Shown here one piece after another: positions 1 to 12,247 of a stretch of 12,247 nt of DNA; position 1 is the stretch's first letter, and every line of letters begins with the position of its first letter. The DNA lies in IMG/VR virus record IMGVR_UViG_3300045988_151478, positions 1-12,247 of that record. One strand, 5' to 3'. The DNA is from a virus. The notes under the pieces are model-generated. The model was not told the DNA's origin and searched no databases. It saw nothing but the letters and a program-made list of their open reading frames with translations. Made by a program: the position numbers and the translations under genes.

Positions 1-94
1 ACAATTCTGACAATTATACAAATTGTATGAAAATTAGAAACAATTCTGACAATTATACAAATTGTATGAAAATTAGAAACAATTCTGACAATTA
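1..94 (+). repeat. 39-bp tandem direct repeat, 2 full copies (1-39, 40-78) plus a 16-nt partial third (79-94)
   Basis: The unit acaattctgacaattatacaaattgtatgaaaattagaa occurs twice, then acaattctgacaatta restarts. Each unit begins with the genome's terminal sequence and contains the inverted repeat ATACAA-a-TTGTAT. The right end has only 1 full plus 1 partial copy. Confidence 0.95.
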
Positions 95-132
95 ATCAAT
101 CTGTCTGACTTTAATACTTTTTTGTTAAACTG

Positions 133-161
133 TTGACTTTTATATGCAAAACTGGTACTAT
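133..161 (+). promoter_or_regulatory. Sigma-A-type promoter inside the left ITR, reading inward
   Basis: -35 TTGACT (133-138), 17-bp spacer, extended -10 TGgTACTAT (153-161). It is followed by the first + strand gene, which has a strong RBS. Confidence 0.7.
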
Positions 162-206
162 GATCTTGCAAACAAATAACAGGTCAGCAAGTAAAGGAGA
201 GAAATT

Positions 207-395
207 ATGAAATCAGTCAAGGAAGTATCAAATGAGGAAATGAATGATATAGCATTATATATGAATGATGATCTCAGAGAGACTATCCATCGTGAGTTAG
301 CACCATGCACAAATGAAGAGTTTATCATTGCATATTGCAATATTGAACCAAGTTTTGAAGATACTCTTAATGGATTGTTTAATATTGAATTATAG
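207..395 (+). CDS. Small, strongly acidic early protein (62 aa), function unknown
   Basis: ATG preceded by AAAGGAGAG at 6-nt spacing. First gene after the left ITR promoter. 14 Asp/Glu versus 4 Lys/Arg. Confidence 0.7.
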   Translation: MKSVKEVSNEEMNDIALYMNDDLRETIHRELAPCTNEEFIIAYCNIEPSFEDTLNGLFNIEL

Positions 396-407
396 GGGAT
401 ATATAAC

Positions 408-530
408 ATGAGAATGAATTCATATTACAACAAAGCTACTATGAACTATAAACAACTTGCATGTGATCTTGAAAAGCAAGGGTTAAGATGCGATTATGAT
501 GATAGAAGTATAAAAAAGGAGAACATATAA
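408..530 (+). CDS. Small hypothetical protein (40 aa), not in the supplied ORF track
   Basis: ATG at 408 follows AGGGG (394-398). It translates to MRMNSYYNKATMNYKQLACDLEKQGLRCDYDDRSIKKENI. Its TAA stop overlaps the next ATG (TAATG at 528-532), and it fills an otherwise empty gap in a tightly packed operon. Confidence 0.5.
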   Translation: MRMNSYYNKATMNYKQLACDLEKQGLRCDYDDRSIKKENI

Positions 531-760
531 TGAATAGAAGTAAATCACAGTTTAATGCTATTTATGAATACTACGCAAAGAAGAGAGCGGATGCAGTCAC
601 AGAATTCATGGATTATAACGGTTTATGGGGAGAGTTTAAAGTGTCTGGCTATAAACGTCCGACAATGTTTTTAAAATGGGTAAAGGGTATCGTAGTATAC
701 CCGGATGGTACTTTTGAACAGTCTGATGATTGGATTGCACCAAGGTTCAGAAAGGAGTAG
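530..760 (+). CDS. Hypothetical early protein (76 aa)
   Basis: ATG preceded by AAAAGGAGAA. TAATG coupling to the upstream small ORF. No recognisable motif. Confidence 0.7.
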   Translation: MNRSKSQFNAIYEYYAKKRADAVTEFMDYNGLWGEFKVSGYKRPTMFLKWVKGIVVYPDGTFEQSDDWIAPRFRKE

Positions 761-762
761 AA

Positions 763-1410
763 ATGGCTTTAAAGGGTATAGAAAGAATCACAACCAAGGG
801 TCAGGTTATAAACCCATATAAAATCAATGAAAAAGAATTAGCCAGACTTTATACAAGTCTGGCTAAACGTCTAAATCAGCGTATGTTGCGTTTAGAGAGA
901 GCAGGATTCACTTCTGAATCCGGTGGTGCATACGCTGATTACAATGCAATTCTTAAAAAGTTTGACTATAATAAAAGAATAAGGGAAAAAATAAAGTTGG
1001 ATTACAGCGATCGGAACGTCCTTTATATGCAGATTTCTTCCATGCGTAAGCAGGTACAAATGATGCAGAATGTTCTAAAAGAAAAAAGTTCTACAGTGCC
1101 AGGGTGGAAATCAATCATAAAAAAGAGACGTGAGAAGCTGTCTGAATATGGACTTGAGTTTAAAGATACAAGTGAAATGAGTGCTTTTTTCCAGTCCTAT
1201 GCTTTTGAACTTATAAGTCTTTTATACTCTTCTGAACAGGCTGTAGAATTTGTTGGTAAAGCCTTGCGTGATGGCGACACAATGAGTGAAATAATTAGCA
1301 AATTAGAGGAGTTCAGAGATCGCACGGACATAGACAGAGCAGATGACGTAGCAAAAGAATTAGGTTTCTCAGGAGAAGCAGAAGCATTAAAATATACATA
1401 CAAGGGGTAA
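763..1410 (+). CDS. Candidate terminal protein (215 aa) for protein-primed replication
   Basis: It lies immediately upstream of the PolB gene, as phi29 gene 3 does. It is helical and charged, and its N-terminal KELARLYTSLAKRLNQRMLRLERAGF resembles phi29 TP AEYARLVKNTKAKIARTKKKYG. The start is taken as ATG 763 (RBS AAAGGAG at 751-757), not the TTG at 730 used by the ORF track, because the TTG start would overlap the upstream gene. Confidence 0.5.
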   Translation: MALKGIERITTKGQVINPYKINEKELARLYTSLAKRLNQRMLRLERAGFTSESGGAYADYNAILKKFDYNKRIREKIKLDYSDRNVLYMQISSMRKQVQMMQNVLKEKSSTVPGWKSIIKKRREKLSEYGLEFKDTSEMSAFFQSYAFELISLLYSSEQAVEFVGKALRDGDTMSEIISKLEEFRDRTDIDRADDVAKELGFSGEAEALKYTYKG

Positions 1411-1412
1411 AA

Positions 1413-3539
1413 ATGGTTATAGCAGGTTATCCAGTTGTTTTATATAAAGACTATGATTACATGCGTCTTTTTGACGGTGATTTCATCCGCAAAAGTAATG
1501 CAGGACACTTCCAGTCTTTTTATGAAAAAATCATAACGATTGATACTGAAACATACGTTTCAGATACAGAAGATATAGGATGGGTCACTGATTGGACCAT
1601 AACTATAGAAAATGATTGCTGTTTGTATGGTAATCATGTGCGTAATCTTATCAATACGATTGACCGGATCTGTGATACACTTCATGGTGACAAAGAGCAT
1701 ACAGTTCGTTTTTACATCCATAACCTGTCATATGATTACATGTTTTTAAGGAATCATCTGATAGAAAAGTTTGGAGTTCCAGACCGTAAGTTAGCAGTCA
1801 AAACACATAGATACGTATTTATGCAATGGCAGTCTTTTGGGCTTGAAATAAGAGATTCTGCCATACTCACTCAACGTACTCTTGAACGTCTCTGCAAGGA
1901 CATGGGGACACTTGAAAAAGCTACTGGTACATGGGACTATAAAAAGAAAAGAACTCCGGAATCTGGACGTACTGTAAAGGAAATTACATACGTATGCATT
2001 GATACGATTTGTCTTTGTAAAGCATTACGACTTTATTTATCACAAAGAAATGTGAACGTGGCTACTGCCCCACTGACCAACACTGGCTTTATTCGCAACC
2101 AAGCCAGATCAAGATCACGAAAAGACAAGAAATGGCATAAGCGTTTTATTTCTATGCAACTAAATTTAAAGCAGTATGAATTACTCACTGCTTGCTATCA
2201 TGGCGGTTATGTTCATGCTAACAGGTACTACGTCAATCGGTTAATTACTGAACCGGTGGAGTGCTACGATTTTATAAGTTCTTATCCTGCCAGAATCGTT
2301 TATGAAAAGTTCCCTATGACCAACTTTGTAGAAACAAAGTTATCATTGCAAGATATCATGGAACTAAAAGAAGATTATGCGTTTGCCGGCTATATACGAT
2401 TGAAAAAGCTACGCTTGAAAAAAGACCATCCTATGCCACCGCTTGCTTTTCACAAAGCAAAAGTTTGTGTGTTTCCAGATGCAGATCGTACAAGTAAAAA
2501 GAAAGCTATGGAATTGAATCTTGATAACGGCAAGATCGTAAACGCAGATCTTATTATTTATCCATTTACGGATCCGGATTTACAAGTCATATTTGAAGCA
2601 TATGATTTTGAATGGGCTGACGTTGCAAACGTCATACGTGCAAAGAAAGACTATCTTCCGGATTGGCTGACATCTTATGTGATTGAATTATTTGAACATA
2701 AGAACACATTGAAACATGCAGACCCGGTTCTTTATATGATTTCAAAAGGCGAACTAAACGGAATCTATGGCATGATGGTTCAAAAGATGATACAATCCAT
2801 GTTTGAAGAAGATTACGAAACTGGGCTATGGTCTGATGTTTTAAGTGAATCAGAATATGAAGAAAAGCTACAAAAGTATTACAAAAATCGTAACAGTTTT
2901 TTACCATATCAATGGGGGGTATGGGTGACAGCCTATGCACAGGCTGAGTTATTCGAACTTGGGAAGTGTTGCAAAAAATGGTATTACTCTGACACCGATT
3001 CCGTTAAGGGGGCAGACTGGGATAGAAAAAAACTTGCTGAGTATAATGATAAAGTAATGAAAAAATCAGCAGAGCGTGGACTTGGAACTGTAGTGTTTAA
3101 TGGGGAATCACATACACTTGGTATTGCCGAGTTTGACGGCATTTACAATGAATTTAAAACAATGGGAAGTAAGCGTTACTGTTACCGCGAAAAAGGAAAA
3201 CTAAAACAGACTGTTGCAGGAGTGCCAAAAGACGGTGTTTATTGTCTTGATGATGACATAAATAATTTCGAAAAAGGTTTTATCTATAGGAATAGTCTCA
3301 CTTATCGCAGAAACTACCGCCGTGCGAACGACTGGAAAAAAGGCCCAAGTTGGAAACTTAAAACGGAATATCTGTATAACAAAGGTATTAACAAAATAGT
3401 TGTTGATGGCTGTGAAATAGAGTACGGCTGTGCAATCCGATTATCCGATACAGAGTATGAGTTGGATCATACGATTCCGTATGATAAGGAAACAGGGTTG
3501 CCGTTGCCGTTTGAGACAAAAGACGTTTTATATATTTAA
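1413..3539 (+). CDS. Family-B protein-primed DNA polymerase (708 aa)
   Basis: Exo I ITIDTETY (D44/E46, nt 1542-1550). Exo II HNLSYDYMFL. Exo III YVCIDTICL. Motif A YDFISSYPA (Dx2SLYP). Motif B KGELNGIYG (Kx3NSxYG). Motif C YSDTDS (nt 2985-3002). KxY motif GSKRYCY. Confidence 0.95.
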   Translation: MVIAGYPVVLYKDYDYMRLFDGDFIRKSNAGHFQSFYEKIITIDTETYVSDTEDIGWVTDWTITIENDCCLYGNHVRNLINTIDRICDTLHGDKEHTVRFYIHNLSYDYMFLRNHLIEKFGVPDRKLAVKTHRYVFMQWQSFGLEIRDSAILTQRTLERLCKDMGTLEKATGTWDYKKKRTPESGRTVKEITYVCIDTICLCKALRLYLSQRNVNVATAPLTNTGFIRNQARSRSRKDKKWHKRFISMQLNLKQYELLTACYHGGYVHANRYYVNRLITEPVECYDFISSYPARIVYEKFPMTNFVETKLSLQDIMELKEDYAFAGYIRLKKLRLKKDHPMPPLAFHKAKVCVFPDADRTSKKKAMELNLDNGKIVNADLIIYPFTDPDLQVIFEAYDFEWADVANVIRAKKDYLPDWLTSYVIELFEHKNTLKHADPVLYMISKGELNGIYGMMVQKMIQSMFEEDYETGLWSDVLSESEYEEKLQKYYKNRNSFLPYQWGVWVTAYAQAELFELGKCCKKWYYSDTDSVKGADWDRKKLAEYNDKVMKKSAERGLGTVVFNGESHTLGIAEFDGIYNEFKTMGSKRYCYREKGKLKQTVAGVPKDGVYCLDDDINNFEKGFIYRNSLTYRRNYRRANDWKKGPSWKLKTEYLYNKGINKIVVDGCEIEYGCAIRLSDTEYELDHTIPYDKETGLPLPFETKDVLYI

Positions 3540-3568
3540 AAAGGGATGCAAATTTTGCACCCCTTTAA
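3538..3568. terminator. Bidirectional intrinsic terminator where the two transcription units converge
   Basis: The AAAAAGGGaTGCA / TGCAcCCCTTTAAA hairpin (3540-3550 pairs with 3556-3566, one mismatch, 5-nt loop) is flanked by an A-run on one side and T-rich sequence on the other. It therefore presents a stem plus U-tract on either strand. It sits between the PolB stop (3537-3539) and the last - strand stop (3586-3588). Confidence 0.65.
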
Positions 3569-3586
3569 ATGTTTCACGTGAAACAT
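3569..3586. repeat. 18-bp perfect palindrome ATGTTTCACGTGAAACAT, copy 1
   Basis: Self-complementary 18-mer with a CACGTG core. On the - strand it directly follows and shares one base with the TAA stop of the tail-fibre gene. An identical copy lies at 6466-6483. Confidence 0.9.
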
Positions 3587-4830
3587 TACATTGTAATACT
3601 TCCTCTGTGAATCTGTACCTGTGTTACGTTTGTCAAGGTTCTGTAGTTGTGTTTGTCATCGCTGATGTCATACAAGGCAAGATAAATCTGCCTTGCTCTG
3701 AAATTCAGTTGTGCCGGAATGTGATAAAAATCAGATCCGGATTTTACAATCACAGTTGTTGGATAGCAGGTATAGCCGTTTCCATCACCAACAAAGGAAG
3801 TTGAATAGATTCTTCCGAGATAGTATTCTGTACCATTACAAATAAGTTCGCCGCTGTTTGGAAAACAAACATAATCACTCCAGATAATATTACTGCTGTT
3901 TTCTTTGTAATTCGTAACGAACACCCAACTACTTCCTATAGTTGCTATAAAGTCTCCTGCTTCAAAGTTTGCAGTTACATCATAAAAGGATGGATGGCAA
4001 GAGCCGGTCTTTACTGCTTCCGCAAGGTAGGTAGAAAGTCTTTCCTGTCCGGTCGTGTTTGGATGAAAACCGTCCGACCCCATGAATCCGTCAGCGTGTA
4101 AAATATATTCGCTTCCATTAAGATAGTTCCAATTTTTCCGCTGTGTGTTATACACACTCTTTGCAATTTTGAACCTGTTCCACTGGGTGCTGTCTGCTGA
4201 CCATGCAACCATTGCAACAAAGATTTTAGCATTCGGAAATCGTGTCTGTGCCACCCCATAAAAGGCATTGATTGCATTTTCAATTTCTGAATAAGTACCG
4301 AACTCATTGTATCCGCCAACAACTAAGATCTGCTTTACAGATGGATCAGCGTCAATCTGATTTAGAAGCATAAGGAATGAGTTGTTGGAAGTTGAAAAAG
4401 AAGCACCGCCATTGCTTTTGATCGTTACATTATCAATAGAACAGTAATCCAAAAAGTGTTCTGTCCATGGAGTAATGTTTCCGTCCGGTGTATAACCTAC
4501 TGTGTAGCTGTCACCAATAATGATAGTTCTGCCACTTAAATCAAATAAACCGTATCTTTTTTCAAGGTTAGAAATAAGTTTGCCCTGTTCGGTTACTGTG
4601 CCTTTTAACGGTTCAATTTCATCCGTCAAGATTTTTTTAGTTGCATCATCAACTACTTTTCCAATCTCTCCGGAATCAAGTGAATCTTTAATTGCTTCAT
4701 CAATCTGTTTTTGTGCGGTTCCTTTTATGTCTGACCATTCTTTATGATCCTTTCCTGCCTGCTTTGCTACTTTTAATAAGTAGTCTAAATTCATGTCCTG
4801 CATGGAACTGTGAGGGTACGTACTAATCAT
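3586..4830 (-). CDS. Tail fibre/appendage protein with central SGNH (GDSL) hydrolase domain (414 aa)
   Basis: SGNH blocks: I IIIGDSYTVG (Ser108 codon at nt 4507-4509), III VVGGYNEF, V SDGFHPN (D253/H256). The N-terminal ~95 aa are charged and helical. The C-terminal ~135 aa are beta-rich. It is the last gene of the structural operon, with RBS AAAGGAGAA. Confidence 0.75.
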   Translation of the reverse strand: MISTYPHSSMQDMNLDYLLKVAKQAGKDHKEWSDIKGTAQKQIDEAIKDSLDSGEIGKVVDDATKKILTDEIEPLKGTVTEQGKLISNLEKRYGLFDLSGRTIIIGDSYTVGYTPDGNITPWTEHFLDYCSIDNVTIKSNGGASFSTSNNSFLMLLNQIDADPSVKQILVVGGYNEFGTYSEIENAINAFYGVAQTRFPNAKIFVAMVAWSADSTQWNRFKIAKSVYNTQRKNWNYLNGSEYILHADGFMGSDGFHPNTTGQERLSTYLAEAVKTGSCHPSFYDVTANFEAGDFIATIGSSWVFVTNYKENSSNIIWSDYVCFPNSGELICNGTEYYLGRIYSTSFVGDGNGYTCYPTTVIVKSGSDFYHIPAQLNFRARQIYLALYDISDDKHNYRTLTNVTQVQIHRGSITM

Positions 4831-4848
4831 TATGTGTTCTCCTTTCTA

Positions 4849-5535
4849 TCAATAAACCAGAATCAGTAAGTCACTGGCAAACAATCCGGTGCAATAATCT
4901 ATAAATGATTGCTTCCTTAGTTGTAATTCACTTTCTATCATCTGCTGAGACGTTGTTACACCTATGTTTCCGTGAATCTGCCCGGTATGGGTCGTAGAGC
5001 CTTTTTCCGTATTTTTTTCAGTTCGCCCATACTCAACACTGTTTACGTCCTGTCCGGAAGTCTCTAACTTTGTAGCACTACCATAGGACGTACTTTCTTC
5101 CTGTGATGGCTGATAGTTTGAGGAATCAAAAGCACTCACTTTTTGTTCCCTAGTGTCACTGCCACTGTTTGAAGTGACTGAACCACGTCCGGCTTTTAAC
5201 GTATTTGTGTCACTGCCACCTGTCACTGTATTTCGCTCAATGTCCGGCGAATCCGTCCAAGTCTCCTGTCGGTCATAGTTTTCAATTGGGTTATATTCTT
5301 TCTTTAAAGCAAGAAATACCCGATTAATGGAATCCTGCCATTTTTTTGACCATGCCGGAATAGCTGACTGTTTCATAAAATCACCGTCCGGATAGAGTGG
5401 TTCACAATCACCATAGGATAAAAGCAAGCTGTCAATAAAGTTCTGCTTGTCAGCTTCTGCCGGAAAAGTCATGTTATCGAATAAGGTCTGGTCATATTCA
5501 TAAAGTCCGGCTATCGTAATTCTATACATCCCCAT
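4849..5535 (-). CDS. Lower collar / head-tail adaptor protein (phi29 gp11-like, 228 aa)
   Basis: It lies directly downstream of the portal gene, as in phi29. The motifs NPIENYDR and HGNIGVTTSQQMIESEL are ones I associate with picovirus collar proteins. The start overlaps the portal 3' end, with RBS AGGTG 6 nt upstream. Confidence 0.55.
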   Translation of the reverse strand: MGMYRITIAGLYEYDQTLFDNMTFPAEADKQNFIDSLLLSYGDCEPLYPDGDFMKQSAIPAWSKKWQDSINRVFLALKKEYNPIENYDRQETWTDSPDIERNTVTGGSDTNTLKAGRGSVTSNSGSDTREQKVSAFDSSNYQPSQEESTSYGSATKLETSGQDVNSVEYGRTEKNTEKGSTTHTGQIHGNIGVTTSQQMIESELQLRKQSFIDYCTGLFASDLLILVY

Positions 5536-6448
5536 TTTTTACACCTGCCTTTTTGTAGTCTCTGATTTTTACGTCCAGATTCAGAGTGGGATAAAGTCTG
5601 TTTGCCATGTCAATTCCTGCCTGCATTGTTTCTAACCATGTAGTAAGTCGTGTCACTGATTCTATATCGTTTTTTTCAGTTTCCATAACATTCAATCGCT
5701 CTTTTTTATCAGATCCGACAGACGGAATTCCAACTTCTGTATCAAACTGGTCAAGAAGCTTTTCAAACACTTCAATTAATTCTTTTGATATAAAGTTGTT
5801 TTTCAAATCTTTGTTGAAAAATTCAAACGGTTCTGAACTTTTCCCCCTCATGTTTGCGTTCTCATTTTCTTTGACTGAAACATCATACGCAACCGCAGGG
5901 TTACCCTCCTGCACTTGGTCATAGACTTTTTCCAGTGTTTTCGCGGCACTTTTGTTTTTGGCAGCTATCATAAAAGCTAATTTGCTGTTGAATACGTTCA
6001 TGTCAAATGCGGAAGCTACCAGAGCCAACTTATAACTATAATAACCGATAATGTCAAAAATCCCGCATCTGGATGGACGTAAATAGATGACTGCACAATC
6101 CTCACCAATCTTTAACCCCTGCAAGCTTATATTGGCATTGGTAGCATACGTGTTAATGCTAGCAATTGTTGGTTTGCAGTACATGTTATAACCCTCAAGC
6201 GCAGGATATTGAGCAATAATCCCATATGCAGGAGTATCCGTGATCGCTATGAACCCACCACCAAGTAGGCAATACTTAAAATAGTCGACGTCAAATTTTG
6301 CATTGTATGTTATGTCAAAAATAGAACACACTCTTTCATATAGCATACGATCAAACGTGTCAGTATATAGACTGTCTGCCTTGATTCCCGATGGTTGGAA
6401 GTAATTTGAAATGATATTGATTTTATCGAATCCAATCGGACACCACAT
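5522..6448 (-). CDS. Portal (connector / upper collar) protein, phi29 gp10-like (308 aa)
   Basis: Size matches phi29 gp10 (309 aa). [20 protein letters not shown] resembles gp10 [49 protein letters not shown] resembles gp10 [30 protein letters not shown]. Confidence 0.85.
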   Translation of the reverse strand: [308 protein letters not shown]

Positions 6449-6465
6449 AATTTTACCTCTTTTCT

Positions 6466-6483
6466 ATGTTTCACGTGAAACAT
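6466..6483. repeat. 18-bp perfect palindrome ATGTTTCACGTGAAACAT, copy 2
   Basis: Identical to 3569-3586. On the - strand it again directly follows and shares one base with a TAA stop (tail knob gene, 6483-6485). It lies 17 nt upstream of the portal ATG, just before its RBS. Confidence 0.9.
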
Positions 6484-7838
6484 TATTCATAATAAAAACC
6501 ACTATTCAAGTAGTTATTCACTACTTCTTGATCTCCGGTAAATCCACTAATTTCTATGGATGCGTTTCTGCATCTGAGATAGCCGGAACACGTTGAAATC
6601 TTGCGACTGTTTCCGTCTGCATATCCCTCACCTGCACCGTTTGGCTCTGTGCTCATTCTTGTATAACAGATTACTGATGCATCAAGATTATTTAGGATTC
6701 CCCCCACTGATCCAACCGCACCAATGCTTGTAACTTCTGGAGATAAAATGGTTTGCATAGTGTTAAGTACACCAGAAGATACGCCGAGTGCATTTCCTGT
6801 CATAGCTGAAGAGACGGTGGAAAGTCCACCAATCAATGCATCACCAATGTTGACGTTTGCACCTGCTATGTTTACCGGTACTGTCATCTGACACTGATAG
6901 TGTCCTATTACAGTACTTCCAGATTTTAGCCATACATCAGATATTCCAGAATATGCATCGAAATAGTAATCGGCTAATAACTGACCATTATTTGTCTTTG
7001 TAATATCTACCGGAACTACTCCAATGCAAGGAAGCTGTACAAAGTAACGGCTAAAATTACCATTGTAAAAACGAAAATCTGTATTAGAATAAAGTGGATT
7101 AGTCAGTTCAAGATTGTAGGAAAAATGCACCACCGGACTACTTGAAGCCCCACCAATCAATAAAGCCTGAACACCGGAATCCCAATAGCCCAAATTTACA
7201 TCATTCATTATTCCTATAAAATTACTTGAGCGAAAGGGTAGCCATTTTAAATCAATAATGTATTTTGCAGGATCGAAAAGAAACTTTGTAGTTGCGTTCT
7301 CAATTAGTTCTTGGAAGTTATCAGCCGTATACATGAAACTCACAATCAAACCTAACTGTTTTTCCGTAACATAGTAAGTTTCAACCCCTGCCGCTCCTAC
7401 AATGCGCATGATATAGTTGCCTGCATATCCATTAACAAATACATTAACTGGCTGTGCAACTATAGTATCCTGCTTCTGCCAGTCCTCAGTGGGTAAATAA
7501 AGCGGATCATCAAGCAAAGGGTCTTGATGATCGGATCGTTCAATAAAGCATGTATATTCGCCTATTTCATTTTTATAAGTTGCCAAAACGTCCTCAGTAC
7601 AAGTTATTTCCGTTTGTCCCGCATTGATTGATGTAGTTGCATCAATGAAATAATAGTGGTCAGCCCATTTGCAATAGTTAAATTGTAGCATGTCATTCAT
7701 TGATTTTTGTAAAATAAACGTAGGACTTTGAAATGTAGTTGCAGTTTTTAAAAGACAGGGAACTTCTGTCCCCTGCCCTATAGGACGCTTTGTGCTATTT
7801 TTTCTTTTCGAAAAATGGTACAAAACTATTTCTGTCAT
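6483..7838 (-). CDS. Tail knob / distal tube protein (phi29 gp9-like, 451 aa)
   Basis: FNYCKWADHYYFIDATTSINAGQTEITCTEDVLATY resembles phi29 gp9 [40 protein letters not shown], and the gene sits upstream of the portal. The start is set at ATG 7838, which forms an ATGA overlap with the endolysin stop. The track's ATG at 7901 would overlap the endolysin gene by 67 nt. Confidence 0.6.
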   Translation of the reverse strand: MTEIVLYHFSKRKNSTKRPIGQGTEVPCLLKTATTFQSPTFILQKSMNDMLQFNYCKWADHYYFIDATTSINAGQTEITCTEDVLATYKNEIGEYTCFIERSDHQDPLLDDPLYLPTEDWQKQDTIVAQPVNVFVNGYAGNYIMRIVGAAGVETYYVTEKQLGLIVSFMYTADNFQELIENATTKFLFDPAKYIIDLKWLPFRSSNFIGIMNDVNLGYWDSGVQALLIGGASSSPVVHFSYNLELTNPLYSNTDFRFYNGNFSRYFVQLPCIGVVPVDITKTNNGQLLADYYFDAYSGISDVWLKSGSTVIGHYQCQMTVPVNIAGANVNIGDALIGGLSTVSSAMTGNALGVSSGVLNTMQTILSPEVTSIGAVGSVGGILNNLDASVICYTRMSTEPNGAGEGYADGNSRKISTCSGYLRCRNASIEISGFTGDQEVVNNYLNSGFYYE

Positions 7839-8482
7839 GATAAGTAAACATCTCCTTTTGAAGTAATGGCACAGATCCAACCGGATGGAATACGTACCCA
7901 TAAAGCACCGGATTCATCCTGTTTCATGTCTTTGACCGTAACTTCTGTTCCTTTTTTCAAGCATCCATCGGAATAAGCGTGTTTCATACCATCCCTTGTC
8001 AGCTGTGAGTATTCTTTGATCTGACCCCAAACGGAAAATCGAACATGTAAATGGTCAACCTGTGTTCGATAAGTCCGTCCTACTACGTATGATGGGCTTG
8101 AATCCCATACCCTGCGGACGCAGACAAGATCATGCCGGCGAGTTACCGGAGAGATCACAACTCCTGTGCCTGGGTTATCTGCCGTGTTTTTACGACCGCC
8201 CCGGCTTTCAATCATTTTTCCATATCCAATGTAAATAGCACAGTGATTAACAGGCGACCCGAAGAATAAGAAATCACCGGGCTTCTGCTGACCAACCGGA
8301 ATTGCCACTCCCATATTTGCATAAGTTGCTGCGTTATATCGTCCAACGTCTGAGCCCGCTGTCCTCTGGATCCAGTAAAGCAATCCGGAGCAGTCAAGAC
8401 CATGTGCAGGAGTTGAGCCACCCCACACATAAGGAGTACCAATTAAATTATGAGCGTACACTACAAGTTCATTTGCTGTCAT
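7835..8482 (-). CDS. Endolysin: NlpC/P60 endopeptidase with C-terminal SH3b-like wall-binding domain (215 aa)
   Basis: GTPYVWGG...GLDCSGL (catalytic Cys) and NHCAIYIGYGKMIES (catalytic His) are present. The C-terminal ~70 aa are beta-rich and SH3b-like. It lies directly after the holin candidate. The start is taken as ATG 8482, because the track start at 8500 is a TTG inside the holin gene. Confidence 0.85.
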   Translation of the reverse strand: MTANELVVYAHNLIGTPYVWGGSTPAHGLDCSGLLYWIQRTAGSDVGRYNAATYANMGVAIPVGQQKPGDFLFFGSPVNHCAIYIGYGKMIESRGGRKNTADNPGTGVVISPVTRRHDLVCVRRVWDSSPSYVVGRTYRTQVDHLHVRFSVWGQIKEYSQLTRDGMKHAYSDGCLKKGTEVTVKDMKQDESGALWVRIPSGWICAITSKGDVYLS

Positions 8483-8489
8483 ATTACCC

Positions 8490-8714
8490 CTACTTTCCAA
8501 TCTGTTCGATTAACGTATTCATCTTTTCCAGAGCGATCGTGTTATTTTTGATCACTTCTGAAAGTGTGTCAACTTCGTTTTTATGATCTTCGTTGAGTTT
8601 GTCAACTCGTGCGTTGGTCTGGTCATACATGTACTTAACAAAATATGCCATGGCGATACAACAAACGATAGGAAATGCATAGTTTCCCAAGATAGTTAAA
8701 AATGTTTCCATCAT
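8490..8714 (-). CDS. Holin candidate (74 aa, one N-terminal transmembrane segment plus charged coiled-coil tail)
   Basis: Hydrophobic stretch FLTILGNYAFPIVCCIAMAYFV followed by a highly charged C-terminus. It lies immediately upstream of the endolysin, with a strong RBS (GAGAGGAG). Confidence 0.6.
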   Translation of the reverse strand: MMETFLTILGNYAFPIVCCIAMAYFVKYMYDQTNARVDKLNEDHKNEVDTLSEVIKNNTIALEKMNTLIEQIGK

Positions 8715-8716
8715 TG

Positions 8717-9037
8717 CTAACTCCTCTCAAAATAATTACTATTTATAGGTGCGTCTGGGACATAATCGACAAGCACTGTCGCTTGCGCTTGTACAAGAGT
8801 AGTTCCATTATTAACCATTGAAAATAAAGACGAATCCGGATATCCGTAATAGCTTTCAAAATTCAATTCAACAAATCCGTTGGAACTGTTAAACATAATA
8901 ATTGGGACTCCGTCATAATTTAATGCAATATCATTATGAGGAGAAGATACTATTAATCTTCTTATACCTATTTTTCTAAATGGAAATTTTACAGTTATAG
9001 AACCACCGGCAGGAATAGTTAATAACGCAGCTAACAT
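8717..9037 (-). CDS. Hypothetical protein (106 aa), possibly a minor virion component
   Basis: ATG lies 1 nt after the capsid stop, with a GGAGG-rich RBS inside the capsid 3' end. The protein looks beta-rich. It has no recognisable motif, so function is inferred only from its position after the capsid gene. Confidence 0.6.
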   Translation of the reverse strand: MLAALLTIPAGGSITVKFPFRKIGIRRLIVSSPHNDIALNYDGVPIIMFNSSNGFVELNFESYYGYPDSSLFSMVNNGTTLVQAQATVLVDYVPDAPINSNYFERS

Positions 9038-9038
9038 T

Positions 9039-10238
9039 TTATTTTCCCCCCTCCCCGATCACATAAAGGATTCCGTTATGTGTAAAGTTATTCCAGTAGT
9101 TTTTTCTGGAATGAACATACATGTTATAGTAGCCACCCCGGCTATTGAATGGAGTGGTTGAACTGTAGTCAAACTGCCAGTTAATACCCATTGCACGGCG
9201 ATCATAAAGAACGCCAAGGACATACGGTAAGTTAACCTCTGTTTTTGCCTGTTTTGCATGACCATCCGCTCCAATGATGGATGGTGTAATCTGGATCGCT
9301 GATTCGTTATCAGCGGACTGCCACCAGTTGACAAGTTCCTTATTTTCGATCTGTAAATTTTTATCGTCAAACACATACGGCATGGTCTGTGTTTCTGAGT
9401 TGATCCAGAAACTTGACAGCATCATAAGTCGCTGATTTTCTTTTCTTGTAAATCTCAAAAGGTTTTCAAACCCTGTAATCGTAAATCTGTACTTGGTTGA
9501 TCTCTCTGTCAACTTTTCAGAATCAAGCTTGATTCGAGCAACCACGAACGGCATAAACTTGTCACGGTGTTCAGAAAGCAACTGTTTTCTTGTATACTGT
9601 GTTCCATTCTCTGTGTTGAACTCATGTGCAAGGTCAACTTCCATTCCAAGAGATGATAAGCCTGCCATATAGTTGAGCATGGTAGCACGCCGTTCACTCT
9701 CTCTGTCTGTTTCTATATCGTTACGAAACTCAATCATAACTGCTTCGTAAAATCTGAGAAATTCGTCCTCACTTGAAAATGCAAGAGCCAGCTGGTCACG
9801 AAACCGTGTGATTGATCTCTGTAACAACTTTGTGCCGTAGAACTTGAGTTCAAGTACTTTCGGCTTATGAATCTTGTACATGTCGATGGATTTGCCATCG
9901 TCCAATGTGTTCGGATTCTGCTCTGTATTCCAGTCATCCGACTGCTCTGCGTCCATTGACAGGGACGTAATTTCACGGACAATAGCCCCCCACCGAACAT
10001 TTGTCTGTTCGACGGTCTTTAATTTACCGGTATAAGATTCATTTGAAAAATAAGTATATGCAAATACTGTGCTGATTGCATTCAGTGTGTTTTCTACCCC
10101 AGTACGTAATAAGGTTTCCCCTACGGAAACAAAAGAACTTGTATCAGTCGCTACAAGGTTAGAACGTCCGGTAGCCTGTTTAGCAACGGAATTGATAAGT
10201 GTATAGGCATCCTGCGGGTTTAAACTATTTACTGCCAA
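9039..10238 (-). CDS. Major capsid protein (phi29 gp8-like, 399 aa), TTG start
   Basis: It follows the scaffold-like gene. C-terminal NSRGGYYNMYVHSRKNYW resembles phi29 gp8 RNPRGLYWNYYYHVWQ. Only a TTG (10236-10238) is available near the RBS AGAAAGGAAG. There is an in-frame stop 2 codons upstream, and the first in-frame ATG is about 95 codons downstream. Confidence 0.8.
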   Translation of the reverse strand: MAVNSLNPQDAYTLINSVAKQATGRSNLVATDTSSFVSVGETLLRTGVENTLNAISTVFAYTYFSNESYTGKLKTVEQTNVRWGAIVREITSLSMDAEQSDDWNTEQNPNTLDDGKSIDMYKIHKPKVLELKFYGTKLLQRSITRFRDQLALAFSSEDEFLRFYEAVMIEFRNDIETDRESERRATMLNYMAGLSSLGMEVDLAHEFNTENGTQYTRKQLLSEHRDKFMPFVVARIKLDSEKLTERSTKYRFTITGFENLLRFTRKENQRLMMLSSFWINSETQTMPYVFDDKNLQIENKELVNWWQSADNESAIQITPSIIGADGHAKQAKTEVNLPYVLGVLYDRRAMGINWQFDYSSTTPFNSRGGYYNMYVHSRKNYWNNFTHNGILYVIGEGGK

Positions 10239-10255
10239 TTTAATTCACTTCCTTT

Positions 10256-10549
10256 CTAATTCATGATTTTCATCATATCGTTAATAATGTCTGATTCTGT
10301 TCTTGGGGGATTTGTCCCCGTGTTCCCTGTGTTCTGGATATTTGAAGCCTGAATCGTAGCTGTTAATTTATTGATAGCATCAAGAACCATATCATTCTGA
10401 TTCTGGTTCTGGTTCTGATTCTGGTTCTGGTTCTGATTCTGGTTCTGGTTCTGATTCTGGTTCTGGTTCTGATTCTGCCCTGCAAATCCAAGAATTTCAG
10501 ATTTTGAAAAACCTGCATTTGCGAGTGCAACTACTTCTTCGATTTTCAT
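10256..10549 (-). CDS. Scaffolding-like protein (97 aa) with internal (Gln-Asn)14 repeat
   Basis: It lies immediately upstream of the capsid gene, and its size matches phi29 gp7 (98 aa). Short helical N- and C-terminal segments are joined by 28 residues of QN repeats. Confidence 0.5.
   Translation of the reverse strand: MKIEEVVALANAGFSKSEILGFAGQNQNQNQNQNQNQNQNQNQNQNQNQNQNDMVLDAINKLTATIQASNIQNTGNTGTNPPRTESDIINDMMKIMN
10394..10477 (-). repeat. In-frame hexanucleotide microsatellite, 14 units (CAGAAY on the coding strand) with an 18-nt higher-order period
   Basis: On the + strand the pattern is attctg attctg (gttctg gttctg attctg)x4, 84 nt in total. It encodes (QN)14 in the scaffold-like gene. 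Confidence 0.95.
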
Positions 10550-10702
10550 TTTTTGTTTTTTCTCCTTTCTATTGAGAAAAACGGATGTTAAGGGAAATAT
10601 ATGAAGGAAAGAAAAAATTAAGGGAAAAACTTACGGGTAATCATCCCTATAGCATCCGTTTCCGACGGTTGATGAAGCTGTTTTTCCCTTAAAATAAAAA
10701 TA
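10550..10702 (-). ncRNA. Structured non-coding region: candidate packaging-RNA analogue or riboregulator/attenuator
   Basis: This is by far the largest non-coding gap in the right-hand (- strand) transcription unit. A 13-bp perfect complement joins 10618-10630 (ttaagggaaaaac) and 10680-10692 (gtttttcccttaa). A 9-bp complement joins 10579-10587 (aaacggatg) and 10653-10661 (catccgttt). The two helices interleave. A second ttaagggaaa copy at 10588-10597 can compete for 10683-10692. On the - strand RNA, both helices are followed by U-runs. Confidence 0.35.
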
Positions 10703-11758
10703 TCACAAATTAAAAATTTTTTCAAGATAAAATTTTACAGTTAGGTTCTGATAGAAAATTCTATTACTAATAATATAGTTATATATCCATGAATAATAGT
10801 ATTTAAACTGTGATTTACCCAACTCACTGTCTGGAAAAACATCTTTGCACGTTCCGGAAATATGATCGCTTATGTAAAGTTTAGCTTCTTTTTTGTGTTC
10901 GTAAACTCCAATAGTTCCAATTACACAAATCAACCTGTAGTTTCTCAAATCTTCTGACTTTATAGAACTCGTATCATCATATGCAAAATCATTGTCAAGA
11001 GACATTTTTTCAAAATCTGTACTTCCGGTAAGAGCCTTATAAAGTGCTGTCTTTCTTTTCTTTTCTGAAATGGGGCTTTTATTAATCAAAATAATGATGA
11101 TTCCACGGTCTTTTAACATGGAAAACTCCTGTCCGGACTTCTTCATTTTTTCCAAGTTCGGAAGCAATCCGAAAGACTGAATAAGCGGGGAATCAAGTGT
11201 ATTACTATTTGAGACAACCCACCAACGAAAAGGCTTCTGACCAAGTAACTCACGGTTGGCAGAAATTGTTTCCACTCCGTTTAAAAATGCATCCTCTTCT
11301 CCTTTGATTCTTTTGTCAAGCTTCTCCGGGATAAACTCGTCATAGATTCCTTCCGAAAAACCGGATCCAGAAAAACCACGATTATTCATTAAACTGGTAA
11401 GACTAAACGCTTCCCCATGATAAACTTCCTCTCCTGCTTCATTGATCTCTTGCAAGGATACCCGGCTTTTTTCACCCTTTACCCTTTTAAAAAAGAAATT
11501 TTTGTGAAGATCATGATTTATGTCTATCCAAGGATTCATTGTATCGACCAGTACAGAATCTATTTGAGTAGTTTTTCTTCTCATATAGATTACTTTTTCA
11601 TCCTTTGAAAAAACATCCTCGATGAAATGTTTGAAGATTCCATATGTTTTTCCAGTACGTCTTGCACCTATGATAAAAATAAAATTTATATCGTTTTTTT
11701 CACATGTATTCACGATTTTAGGGATATCCAACCATCCATTTTTTTCGTATATATTCAT
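10703..11758 (-). CDS. DNA packaging (encapsidation) ATPase, phi29 gp16-like (351 aa)
   Basis: Walker A IIGARRTGKTYG resembles gp16 VIGARGIGKSYA. VIYMRRK resembles FIYVRRY. Walker B IYDEFIPEK resembles VFDEFIREK. VVSNSNTLDSP resembles CLSNAVSVVNP. EKMSLDNDFAYDD resembles GEMSLDNQFIGDN. The start is set at ATG 11758 (RBS AAGGTG 7 nt upstream). The track start at 11827 would overlap the upstream gene by 50 nt. Confidence 0.9.
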   Translation of the reverse strand: MNIYEKNGWLDIPKIVNTCEKNDINFIFIIGARRTGKTYGIFKHFIEDVFSKDEKVIYMRRKTTQIDSVLVDTMNPWIDINHDLHKNFFFKRVKGEKSRVSLQEINEAGEEVYHGEAFSLTSLMNNRGFSGSGFSEGIYDEFIPEKLDKRIKGEEDAFLNGVETISANRELLGQKPFRWWVVSNSNTLDSPLIQSFGLLPNLEKMKKSGQEFSMLKDRGIIIILINKSPISEKKRKTALYKALTGSTDFEKMSLDNDFAYDDTSSIKSEDLRNYRLICVIGTIGVYEHKKEAKLYISDHISGTCKDVFPDSELGKSQFKYYYSWIYNYIISNRIFYQNLTVKFYLEKIFNL

Positions 11759-11777
11759 TTTGATACACCTTATAGTT

Positions 11778-12074
11778 TTATGAAAACTGCTGTTTATTTG
11801 AGTTATCAGAATCCTTGCTGACTTCATTGTATTTTTTAATACAAGCTTCTTCTAACTGACCTGTAAACTCCTTATCCATTGAGTAAATTGAGTTGTAATA
11901 TTTCCCGTCTTTTCCTTTTGAAGATGGAAAAGAAAGAAATAACCCTTTTGACCCCTCTATAAGCGTCATACCTTTAATGACAAGCGTATTATCAAGGGCT
12001 AATTCGATAAAAGCTTTTGTTTTGCTGTTGCCATCATAAGGACGGCAGGTTATTTTGATAGATGATTTTAACAT
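11778..12074 (-). CDS. spoVG: SpoVG-family nucleic-acid-binding protein (98 aa)
   Basis: It aligns along its full length with B. subtilis SpoVG (97 aa). KAFIELALDNTLVIKGMTLIEGSKGLFLSFPSSKGKDGKYY matches [41 protein letters not shown]. It is the first gene after the right ITR promoter, with RBS AAAGGAGA. Confidence 0.75.
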   Translation of the reverse strand: MLKSSIKITCRPYDGNSKTKAFIELALDNTLVIKGMTLIEGSKGLFLSFPSSKGKDGKYYNSIYSMDKEFTGQLEEACIKKYNEVSKDSDNSNKQQFS

Positions 12075-12107
12075 GTTTTAATCTCCTTTACATATTTTGC
12101 TATTTAT

Positions 12108-12247
12108 TTATTTGTTTGCAAGATCATAGTACCAGTTTTGCATATAAAAGTCAACAGTTTAACAAAAAAGTATTAAAGTCAGACAGATTGATTAATTGTC
12201 AGAATTGTTTCTAATTTTCATACAATTTGTATAATTGTCAGAATTGT
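12108..12247. repeat. Right inverted terminal repeat (140 bp)
   Basis: Its reverse complement is identical to 40-179. It has one full 39-bp unit plus the 16-nt partial unit. Confidence 0.95.
12126..12154 (-). promoter_or_regulatory. Sigma-A-type promoter inside the right ITR, reading inward
   Basis: Exact mirror copy of the left promoter: -35 TTGACT (revcomp of 12149-12154), 17-bp spacer, -10 TACTAT (revcomp of 12126-12131) preceded by TGg. Confidence 0.7.

Follow-up and report, generated by a model that had tools for sequence, protein, structure and literature searches.

The stretch of DNA analyzed here, called the window throughout, comprises all 12,247 nucleotides (nt) of the virus record IMGVR_UViG_3300045988_151478 in IMG/VR. 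We regard it, with a probability of about 0.9, as the linear and nearly complete genome of a phi29-like podophage, lytic and common in metagenomes of the human gut, that replicates by protein priming and is organized in two convergent units. The coding is dense. Plus-strand genes (207-395, 408-530, 530-760, 763-1410 and 1413-3539) face eleven minus-strand genes that run from 12074 to 3586, and the only sizeable noncoding gap, 10550-10702, holds a small structured RNA. This RNA is the main new result: it is conserved, appears to be promoter driven, and has the topology of the phi29 packaging RNA (pRNA), with co-varying interlocking loops. The features of the window are listed below, with lengths in amino acids (aa).

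1..179, no strand: left inverted terminal repeat (ITR), its outer end truncated by comparison with contig L152 and related contig ends
207..395, plus: 62-aa acidic protein, AcrIC5 anti-CRISPR family (PF22147), first gene past the left ITR promoter
408..530, plus: 40-aa open reading frame (ORF), g40, with longer homologues in relatives
530..760, plus: 76-aa early protein, g76, conserved in 29 related loci
763..1410, plus: 215-aa all-alpha candidate terminal protein (by position), ending 2 nt before the PolB start codon
1413..3539, plus: PolB, protein-primed type, 708 aa (PF03175, E 8e-12; phrog_1907, E 1e-50)
3541..3586, no strand: stem-loop and palindrome between the convergent PolB and fiber genes (sequence reading)
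3586..4830, minus: putative tail fiber/appendage with SGNH/GDSL esterase domain, 414 aa (phrog_31573, E 6e-30), closing the tail module behind the collar gene
4849..5535, minus: lower collar (tail tube), gp11 homologue, 228 aa (iterative profile; portal-collar synteny)
5522..6448, minus: portal/upper collar connector, 308 aa (PF05352, E 1e-12; phrog_2038, E 1e-19; hhalign to phi29 gp10, 96.5% probability)
6466..6484, no strand: palindrome ATGTTTCACGTGAAACAT, repeated here between the end of the knob gene (stop codon) and the start codon of the portal gene
6483..7838, minus: tail knob, 451 aa from ATG 7838 (Foldseek; exact match DAO34515.1)
7835..8482, minus: endolysin, NlpC/P60 cysteine peptidase, 215 aa from ATG 8482 (PF00877, E 3e-18; gene call in L152)
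8490..8714, minus: holin candidate, 73-74 aa, one transmembrane segment and a coiled coil (phrog_4898 holin, a weak match, E 2e-4)
8717..9037, minus: 106-aa hypervariable protein at the position of phi29 gp8.5
9039..10238, minus: major capsid protein (MCP), phi29 type (PF25622, Phi29_MCP, E 6e-12)
10256..10549, minus: scaffold candidate, 97 aa, containing a low-complexity (NQ)n repeat and placed, as gp7 is in phi29, immediately before the MCP gene
10620..10690, minus: three-way-junction RNA, 71 nt, candidate mini-pRNA (covariation, topology)
10697..10725, minus: promoter-like site over the ATPase stop codon (TTGAAA, 17-nt spacer with TG, TATTTT)
10703..11758, minus: gp16-type packaging ATPase, 351 aa (PF05894, E 3e-17, above the cut-off; phrog_2150, E 5e-36)
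11778..12074, minus: SpoVG-family DNA/RNA-binding protein, 98 aa (PF04026, E 4e-17; named SpoVG in DAO34504.1)
12108..12247, no strand: right ITR, truncated, with one perfect 39-nt unit, a degenerate unit and an inward promoter

The genome and its relatives

The window proteins match GenBank proteins DAO34504-DAO34520 of a third-party annotation (TPA) metagenome-assembled genome (MAG) exactly, all those checked being identical; that record names only "DNA polymerase B" and "SpoVG." A further 26 IMG/VR contigs encode a PolB 91-95% identical to that of the window and have the same layout, and the sister contigs measure 12.2-13.05 kb. More broadly, the related loci (n = 80) span 7.7-14.6 kb, the complete-looking ones 11.5-14.6 kb, a size range that hundreds of related contigs share, and cultured relatives 10.4-14.9 kb. 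In the 90%-identity clusters listed, no contig carrying window proteins is longer than about 13.6 kb. A 2024 review counts more than 2000 phi29-like entries, many of them gut MAGs of 12-15 kb (PMC11476376). The window is an already deposited member of an abundant, catalogued group of miniature phi29-like gut phages. The preliminary description of this DNA, made from the sequence alone, had presented it as an exceptional genome. This does not stand, given the abundance of 10-15 kb phi29-like genomes in gut metagenomes and the isolates AD70P2/P3, CI55P1 and Astrithrvirus (PMC11476376). Its statement that the genome is near the lower size limit of tailed phages is true only loosely, as there are cultured relatives of 10.4-11.9 kb.

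The convergent layout is a property of one lineage. Among the 101 loci with both PolB and ATPase genes, 77 are co-linear and 24 convergent, the latter all from the window lineage and recurring in several metagenomes. A sister lineage (PolB about 67% identical, including MT836115 from human feces) has all its genes on one strand. The order ATPase, MCP, knob, portal, collar is found in nearly all 101 loci and is ancestral for the family. The lineage-specific change is an inversion of the whole block from SpoVG to the fiber relative to the sister lineages, which sets both arms under identical ITR promoters. An explanation of the inverted late module by mis-assembly was rejected, since 24 loci have it. 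Hence, the rearrangement relative to phi29 that had been described at first is real in that the order differs and the ATPase gene comes first, but most of it is the norm of the family and only the inversion of the late module is specific to the lineage. Three loci (L086, L092, and L103) show a third arrangement, with PolB and ATPase on one strand and the structural operon on the other. Pairwise protein identities are 22-26% to the phi29 group and about 25-37% to Amedibacillus phages filed under Guelinviridae.

Termini and inverted terminal repeats

Positions 40-179 and 12108-12247 form a 100% complementary inverted repeat of 140 nt. On the left, two perfect 39-nt units (1-39 = 40-78) are followed by a degenerate third unit (79-117), so the left ITR carries one perfect copy more than the right and the two ends are unequal. 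Both window ends coincide with a boundary of the 39-nt repeat. They lie inside the ITR tandem repeats, because contig L152 and related contig ends run further out. L152, which has an identical 62-aa first gene and an identical leader, extends 84 nt further left; its outer end begins AACTAGGCATGACAG / AACTAGGCATG and holds three 39-nt units. A near-identical strain and seven related contig ends reach 46-84 nt beyond the window, to the conserved end AAACTAGGCATGACAG, the outermost sequence of which is also written AAACTAGGCATG. Four contigs (L013, L027, L009, and L023) have AAACTAGGCATGACAGTTCG as their first bases, about 51 nt out from where the window starts, and L021 begins 5 nt further in, at AGGCATGACAG. 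An exact search for the terminal motif GGCATGACAGTTCG located it at 9 ends of 7 IMG/VR contigs, which come from 3 metagenome data sets, always 1-7 nt from the end and nowhere else, and nine contig ends stop at most 6 nt from the same base. The sister lineage with a PolB about 67% identical terminates AAACTTGGCAAGACAA. All ends start AAA, like those of phi29, which is compatible with sliding-back initiation.

The physical termini lie outside the window, each end of which lacks about 50 nt and, in addition, copies of the repeat (about 50-90 nt). The truncation removes no coding capacity, and the true genome length is about 12.3-12.4 kb. The initial claim of a complete genome between two ITRs is thus right about the ITRs and the gene set and wrong about completeness, since both ends are truncated and related ends run further. 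The runs of sequence past the ends that it had envisaged, into host or additional phage DNA, were not found: related contigs extend only to the conserved phage terminus, 46-84 nt out.

Besides the 39-nt tandem repeats, the ITRs hold 9-nt iterons, CAGACAATT / CTGACAATT (window 1-117 and 12131-12247; the right end of L023; the ends of L014, L021, and L028). The copy number of the repeats varies among strains and is high in L023. These repeats and iterons may be binding sites for a replication protein or for one that organizes the ends. The 39-nt repeat specific to the window was not found in IMG/VR.

A conserved three-way-junction RNA

The 71-nt RNA lies between the ATPase gene and the scaffold candidate. 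Its gap can still be aligned with the sister lineage whose PolB is about 67% identical; when the whole window was compared with that lineage by megablast, the only other region to align was the lysis region (7648-8743). The closing helix P1 pairs 10690-10680 with 10630-10620 and is followed by a U-tract. P2a pairs 10679-10678 with 10652-10651, with an internal loop on the 5' side (10677-10669), and leads to P2b (10668-10665 with 10659-10656), capped by the pentaloop CGGAA (10664-10660). P3 pairs 10647-10645 with 10637-10635 and closes the loop AUGAUUA (10644-10638). Over 21 distinct sequences, 99.8% of the cells are paired in this structure, with 9 pairs showing compensatory changes, against about 40% paired in slid controls. 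Across alignments, 99-100% of the cells are paired with 9-12 compensatory pairs, and P1, P2a, and P2b are supported. A first fold, which paired C21-G39 and A22-U38, was dropped: L078 and L058 break the pair, and these bases fit a helix between the loops.

Between the internal loop and the P3 loop there is complementarity over 3-6 nt, which co-varies across 17 lineages, for example as AUCA:UGAU, ACCA:UGGU, GGCA:UGCC, AGAC:GUCU, GAGC:GCUC, GCAC:GUGC, GCUG:CAGC, GGUCA:UGACC, UGAUCA:UGAUCA, and AGCC:GGCU. The longest complementary run averages 3.88 nt when the loops are taken from the same lineage and 2.23 nt when they are taken from different ones, and none of 20000 permutations reached the observed total. 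On alignment A8, pairing in the loop-loop helix reaches 100%, and one change, from U-A to C-G, is compensatory.

A covariance model found the RNA in every tested member of the lineages with 63-95% ATPase identity. More distant relatives (ATPase 27-38% identical) have a consensus promoter, TTGACA-17-TATAAT, at the equivalent place after the ATPase gene, with its start at the 5' end of an RNA of the same architecture. A descriptor anchored on the C[CG]GAA pentaloop matched 83 of the 124 loci and 14 of the 248 control strands, with one chance match inside the ATPase gene of the window; a sequence-free three-way-junction descriptor gave many chance matches and was discarded as too permissive. Other sites include L002 6296-6368 (minus), L162 about 4764-4870 (plus), and L081 1360-1433 (plus). 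Relatives of the RNA span 60-110 nt, and of the small phi29-like gut phages that were retrieved, most carry one. Cultured phages are among the carriers: AD70P3 has the RNA between its ATPase and scaffold genes, whereas in CI55P1 and CI130P1 it precedes the ATPase gene, measures about 105 nt, and has UACCA:UGGUA loops and a long closing helix.

Rfam scans gave no family matching the 71-nt RNA. In particular, the phi29 pRNA family, RF00044, had no match at E ≤ 10 in the window, in L081, L098, or L104, or in the CI55P1 gap, with the phi29 control scoring 145 bits. A tRNA scan of the window found none. In four loci of one distant lineage, a tRNA gene starts 1-2 nt past the RNA (L108 4952-5026, L115 4899-4969, L117 5105-5179, and L112 5089-5160); ARAGORN assigned it as tRNA-Gln in three of these four and left the one in L108 unassigned. 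An abutting tRNA would imply co-transcription and processing of the RNase P type.

Promoters, terminator, and palindromes

The left ITR has an inward sigma70-type promoter (TTGACT 133-138, a 17-nt spacer with TG, TACTAT 156-161), and the right ITR bears the same promoter, also inward, at 12154-12126. The third promoter-like site, over the ATPase stop codon, has its predicted start at the 5' end of the 71-nt RNA. Between the convergent PolB and fiber genes, the stem-loop at 3541-3586 reads as a bidirectional terminator, and it is absent from the list of the consensus scan. A perfect palindrome of 18-19 nt, ATGTTTCACGTGAAACAT, follows the stem-loop at 3568-3586, directly past the fiber stop codon. 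This palindrome is kept at both of its sites in the window lineage only, and the co-linear loci of the sister lineage that were checked hold zero exact copies of its 14-nt core.

Genes of the right arm

The right arm carries the virion, packaging, and lysis genes. For the lower collar, a local jackhmmer search over the ORFs of 123 loci reached phi29 gp11 at E 2e-17, with the family in 117 loci. The knob had only tail knobs among its top 8 PDB matches in Foldseek (phi29 gp9, C1 gp12, and Andhra; E 7e-6 to 3e-4). When local family alignments were compared with single phi29 proteins by hhalign, the portal alone was significant, and PDB sequence searches with the knob, collar, fiber, 215-aa protein, and PolB returned zero matches. 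The packaging ATPase likely starts at ATG 11758: the mechanical ORF reaches 11827, and homologues align from residue 20-24 on. The 414-aa protein matches PF13472 with E 2e-6 and 28.9 bits, just under the cut-off of 32.9, and GDS, GYN (GxN), and DGFH (DxxH) motifs are visible. We infer from its place that it is the tail fiber.

SpoVG, which was found in 57 related loci, is encoded next to the ATPase gene, on its upstream side, and no other gene comes between it and the right ITR promoter. The preliminary description had seen no DNA-binding protein or transcriptional regulator; the ORF at 11778-12074 is one that it missed, and SpoVG is a candidate for the missing DNA/RNA-binding or regulatory function. 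Its list of missing functions also left out the packaging RNA of phi29, for which a candidate exists at 10620-10690. The rest of its phi29-type gene set fared well for PolB, ATPase, capsid, portal, collar, knob, endolysin, and SGNH fiber, whereas the scaffold and the terminal protein are positional assignments and the holin match is weak.

The scaffold candidate belongs to a family present in 104 loci, and hhalign found no homology to phi29 gp7. A tandem repeat with an 18-nt period (10382-10483, minus) encodes its (NQ)n tract; relatives hold different low-complexity tracts at this site, e.g., a PAPV-rich one in L083. The family of the holin candidate is found in 110 of the 123 related loci, including the Gram-negative-infecting astrithr (gp05), and the position of the gene differs among genomes. 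Such conservation is unusual for a holin, and the family may have another role. The C-terminal domain of the endolysin looks SH3-like, a label read from its sequence.

The 106-aa protein gave no match in Pfam or PHROG searches. It is 33-54% identical in most relatives, against 93-97% for the adjacent MCP, and is possibly a capsid decoration protein. Alleles of the tail knob fall into two classes, one about 90-96% identical and the other about 56-58%. The variation of these two proteins suggests surface-exposed or host-range determinants under diversifying exchange.

Genes of the left arm

PolB aligns to the phi29 DNA polymerase over ExoII, ExoIII, YxGG, motif A (DFISSYP), motif B (KGELNGIYG), and motif C (YSDTDS), and carries inserts at the TPR1 and TPR2 positions. 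The 215-aa family encoded next to it is present in 103 related loci, directly upstream of PolB wherever coordinates were checked (13 diverse lineages, including AD70P3 and astrithr gp02). Across 14 diverse lineages, only two positions are near-invariant, the Gly of an SSTxxG motif (residues 108-114) and Ser157. Both Ser157 and the SSTxxG loop, which is predicted to be flexible, are candidate DNA-linking sites.

The 62-aa protein matches PF22147 with E 6e-8 and 33.1 bits over residues 11-45, the cut-off being 27, and identical copies of it bear the same precomputed Pfam tag. By this match we take it to be a member of the AcrIC5 family, which the preliminary description had missed as well, and its position would make it immediate-early. 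Its cluster at 90% identity has 79 members on contigs of up to 13.2 kb, and it is absent from the first 29 related loci. Pfam and PHROG searches with g76 gave no match. In the co-linear lineage, the homologue of g40 lies at the opposite genome end and on the other strand.

Interpretation

These features suggest the following life cycle. A terminal protein linked to each 5' end would prime the family-B polymerase, as the gene set and the termini indicate, with origins in the long ITRs, which would start AAACTAGG, contain 39-nt tandem repeats rich in TGACAATT, and end inside with an inward promoter. The two identical ITR promoters could then drive the convergent units. The left one would comprise the AcrIC5-like protein, two small proteins, the terminal protein, and PolB, and the right one SpoVG and the packaging ATPase. 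A second promoter over the ATPase stop would start the small structured RNA and then the late genes, in the order scaffold, capsid, 106-aa variable protein, holin, endolysin, knob, portal, lower collar, and esterase fiber. Both arms would end at the stem-loop beside PolB, acting as a bidirectional terminator. The virion and the packaging machinery would be of the phi29 type, and lysis would be due to the holin candidate and the NlpC/P60 endolysin.

Several observations weigh against this account and should be kept in mind. The true termini are absent from the window itself. Matches to the promoter consensus across the whole window are not commoner than in shuffled sequence, and the promoters and terminators amount to consensus matches or to a reading of the sequence. 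The scaffold, holin, and fiber roles come mainly from position. The AlphaFold2 (AF2) model of the knob has low confidence (predicted local distance difference test [pLDDT] 53.5, about 80 for residues 1-95), with TM-scores of 0.17-0.25; the input alignments for AF2 were shallow because two of the three large protein searches gave nearly only near-identical sequences. As endolysin relatives, bacterial genomes offered only generic NlpC/P60 proteins in Neobacillus and Bacillus, which we rejected as a host clue. Finally, Pfam, PDB sequence searches, hhalign, and Foldseek give no link between the 215-aa protein and phi29 gp3, and no similarity of this protein to any solved structure was detected. 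Its role as terminal protein is a positional inference, and one could propose that the terminal protein is another product, with priming by g76 or g40 or through another mechanism. The lack of sequence or structural similarity to known terminal proteins speaks for this, as does an all-alpha AF2 model of only moderate confidence (pLDDT 64.5) without a meaningful Foldseek match. Yet the family, in its 103 loci, sits immediately upstream of PolB wherever this was checked, even in a Gram-negative-infecting relative. Its size and all-alpha character resemble those of known terminal proteins, one of its Ser residues is near-invariant, its flexible loop contains an S-S/T-T motif, and g76 is limited to 29 loci. 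A different terminal protein seems improbable to us. Much less credible still is that the contig represents part of a larger phage genome, or a faulty assembly of one, with terminal repeats created by the assembler. The ends differ in their number of 39-nt units and stop exactly at a repeat boundary, as an assembly effect would produce, and the window is shorter than its sister contigs. Against this, only about 50-90 nt are missing per end, nine contig ends fall within 6 nt of one base, all functions expected of a phi29-type phage are present, and the largest contig is of about 13.6 kb among the clusters listed. The view of the preliminary description that this is a minimal phi29-type phage, neither a fragment nor a chimera, holds: 24 independent loci have the exact layout.

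What does the RNA do? In the phi29 pRNA, helix A is followed by C, a 9-nt 5'-side internal loop with AACC, E and its loop, C', D with a GGUU loop, and A'. The 71-nt RNA and its relatives have exactly this order, A-C-[5'-side internal loop]-E-loop-C'-D-loop-A'. In phi29, the same two loops pair between molecules and build a ring (PMC5066667). Packaging RNA is regarded as unique to Bacillus phi29-like phages (PMC5066667, PMC11476376), and our literature search found no paper reporting a pRNA outside Bacillus phages. We give an even chance to the idea that the 71-nt RNA and its relatives, including those of the cultured Amedibacillus and Clostridium_AQ phages, are miniature packaging RNAs. In this reading, the internal loop of one molecule would pair with the P3 loop of the next, and the resulting ring would sit on the portal and dock the gp16-type ATPase there, in the manner of the phi29 pRNA. 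A different view, which we take seriously though we find it less likely, is that the RNA acts in cis, as the 5' leader of the late operon, i.e., an attenuator or terminator, an mRNA-stabilizing cap, or a put-like antitermination element, in which the loops would make an intramolecular tertiary contact. Three-way junctions with such intramolecular loop-loop contacts occur elsewhere, e.g., in purine riboswitches, and the sequences do not tell pairing between molecules from pairing within them. The location fits a leader: the RNA directly follows a promoter ahead of the late genes in nearly all genomes. It stays at the head of the operon, and not beside the ATPase gene, in L092 and L103, where the structural operon is inverted. 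It heads the unit of ATPase plus late genes in CI55P1, and in some genomes the next ribosome-binding site follows it with no obvious terminator. However, P1 is followed in the window lineage by a U-tract, at which a discrete RNA would be released, and the tRNA-Gln gene that starts 1-2 nt behind the RNA in L108-L123 implies precise 3' processing and a separate molecule; both point to an RNA that is processed into a discrete species. From lineage to lineage, P2a and P3 vary in length without following each other, which argues against a leader because loops meeting within one molecule would be expected to keep the two in step. The exact helix order of the phi29 pRNA also goes against it. What probability remains is for the RNA being neither a packaging RNA nor a leader.

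The genome itself adds little, as it is one more 10-15 kb phi29-like gut phage, already in a TPA MAG. The RNA could matter more. Its presence in cultured Amedibacillus and Clostridium phages makes a packaging role directly testable. If this role is true, pRNA-dependent packaging extends beyond the Bacillus phi29 group, and a much smaller natural pRNA has been defined. A minimal natural scaffold of about 65-75 nt would be of use for studies of motor mechanics, of the evolution of RNA-dependent packaging, and for RNA nanotechnology. The RNA also bears on how other phages with gp16-type ATPases dock their motor on the portal. Also of note are the putative immediate-early AcrIC5-family gene, the phage SpoVG, and the inversion of a whole module.

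Comparison with known systems

Phage phi29 (Salasmaviridae, 19.3 kb) shares with the window PolB, the gp16 ATPase, the MCP, the gp10 portal, the gp11 lower collar, and the gp9 knob, as well as the AAA genome ends and the sub-order scaffold-MCP-(8.5)-knob-portal-collar-appendage. It differs in having ITRs of 6 bp, against more than 200 bp here, and in having the ATPase gene last. Its p4, p5, p6, p16.7, p17, gp13, and head fiber were not detected in the window. Its pRNA gene lies at the left end and yields an RNA of 117-174 nt that matches RF00044, whereas the RNA of the window has 71 nt and no match.

Genomes of smaller or equal size are found in Astrithrvirus (Salmonella phage astrithr, 11.6 kb), Phanie, DU_PP_III, and Vibrio phage K58 g2 (10.4 kb). 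This group has homologues of the terminal protein candidate, PolB, ATPase, MCP, and knob; it differs in its Gram-negative hosts, in protein identities of 22-30%, and in a larger portal (425 aa), and the three-way-junction RNA was not detected in it.

Among the closest relatives, the uncultured human-gut phage MT836115.1 shares the gene set (PolB 67.5% and MCP 61.5% identical), ITRs of about 143 nt, and the same RNA. Unlike the window, its lineage is co-linear, on one strand, with the g40 homologue at the far end. The records of MT836115, of the IMG/VR sister contigs, and of the TPA MAG have no description of function.

Finally, AD70P2/AD70P3 (12.2-12.3 kb, filed under Guelinviridae) and CI55P1/CI130P1 (14.2-14.9 kb, Clostridium_AQ) were cultured from sewage on gut bacteria. 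The proteins of the former are only about 25-37% identical to those of the window, no SpoVG homologue was detected in AD70P3, and for CI55P1/CI130P1 the ATPase, which alone was compared, is 22-24% identical. These Amedibacillus and Clostridium_AQ phages are co-linear, unlike the window. Still, they share with it the size class, the order of terminal protein-like gene, PolB, ATPase, capsid, knob, portal, and collar, and the same kind of three-way-junction RNA.

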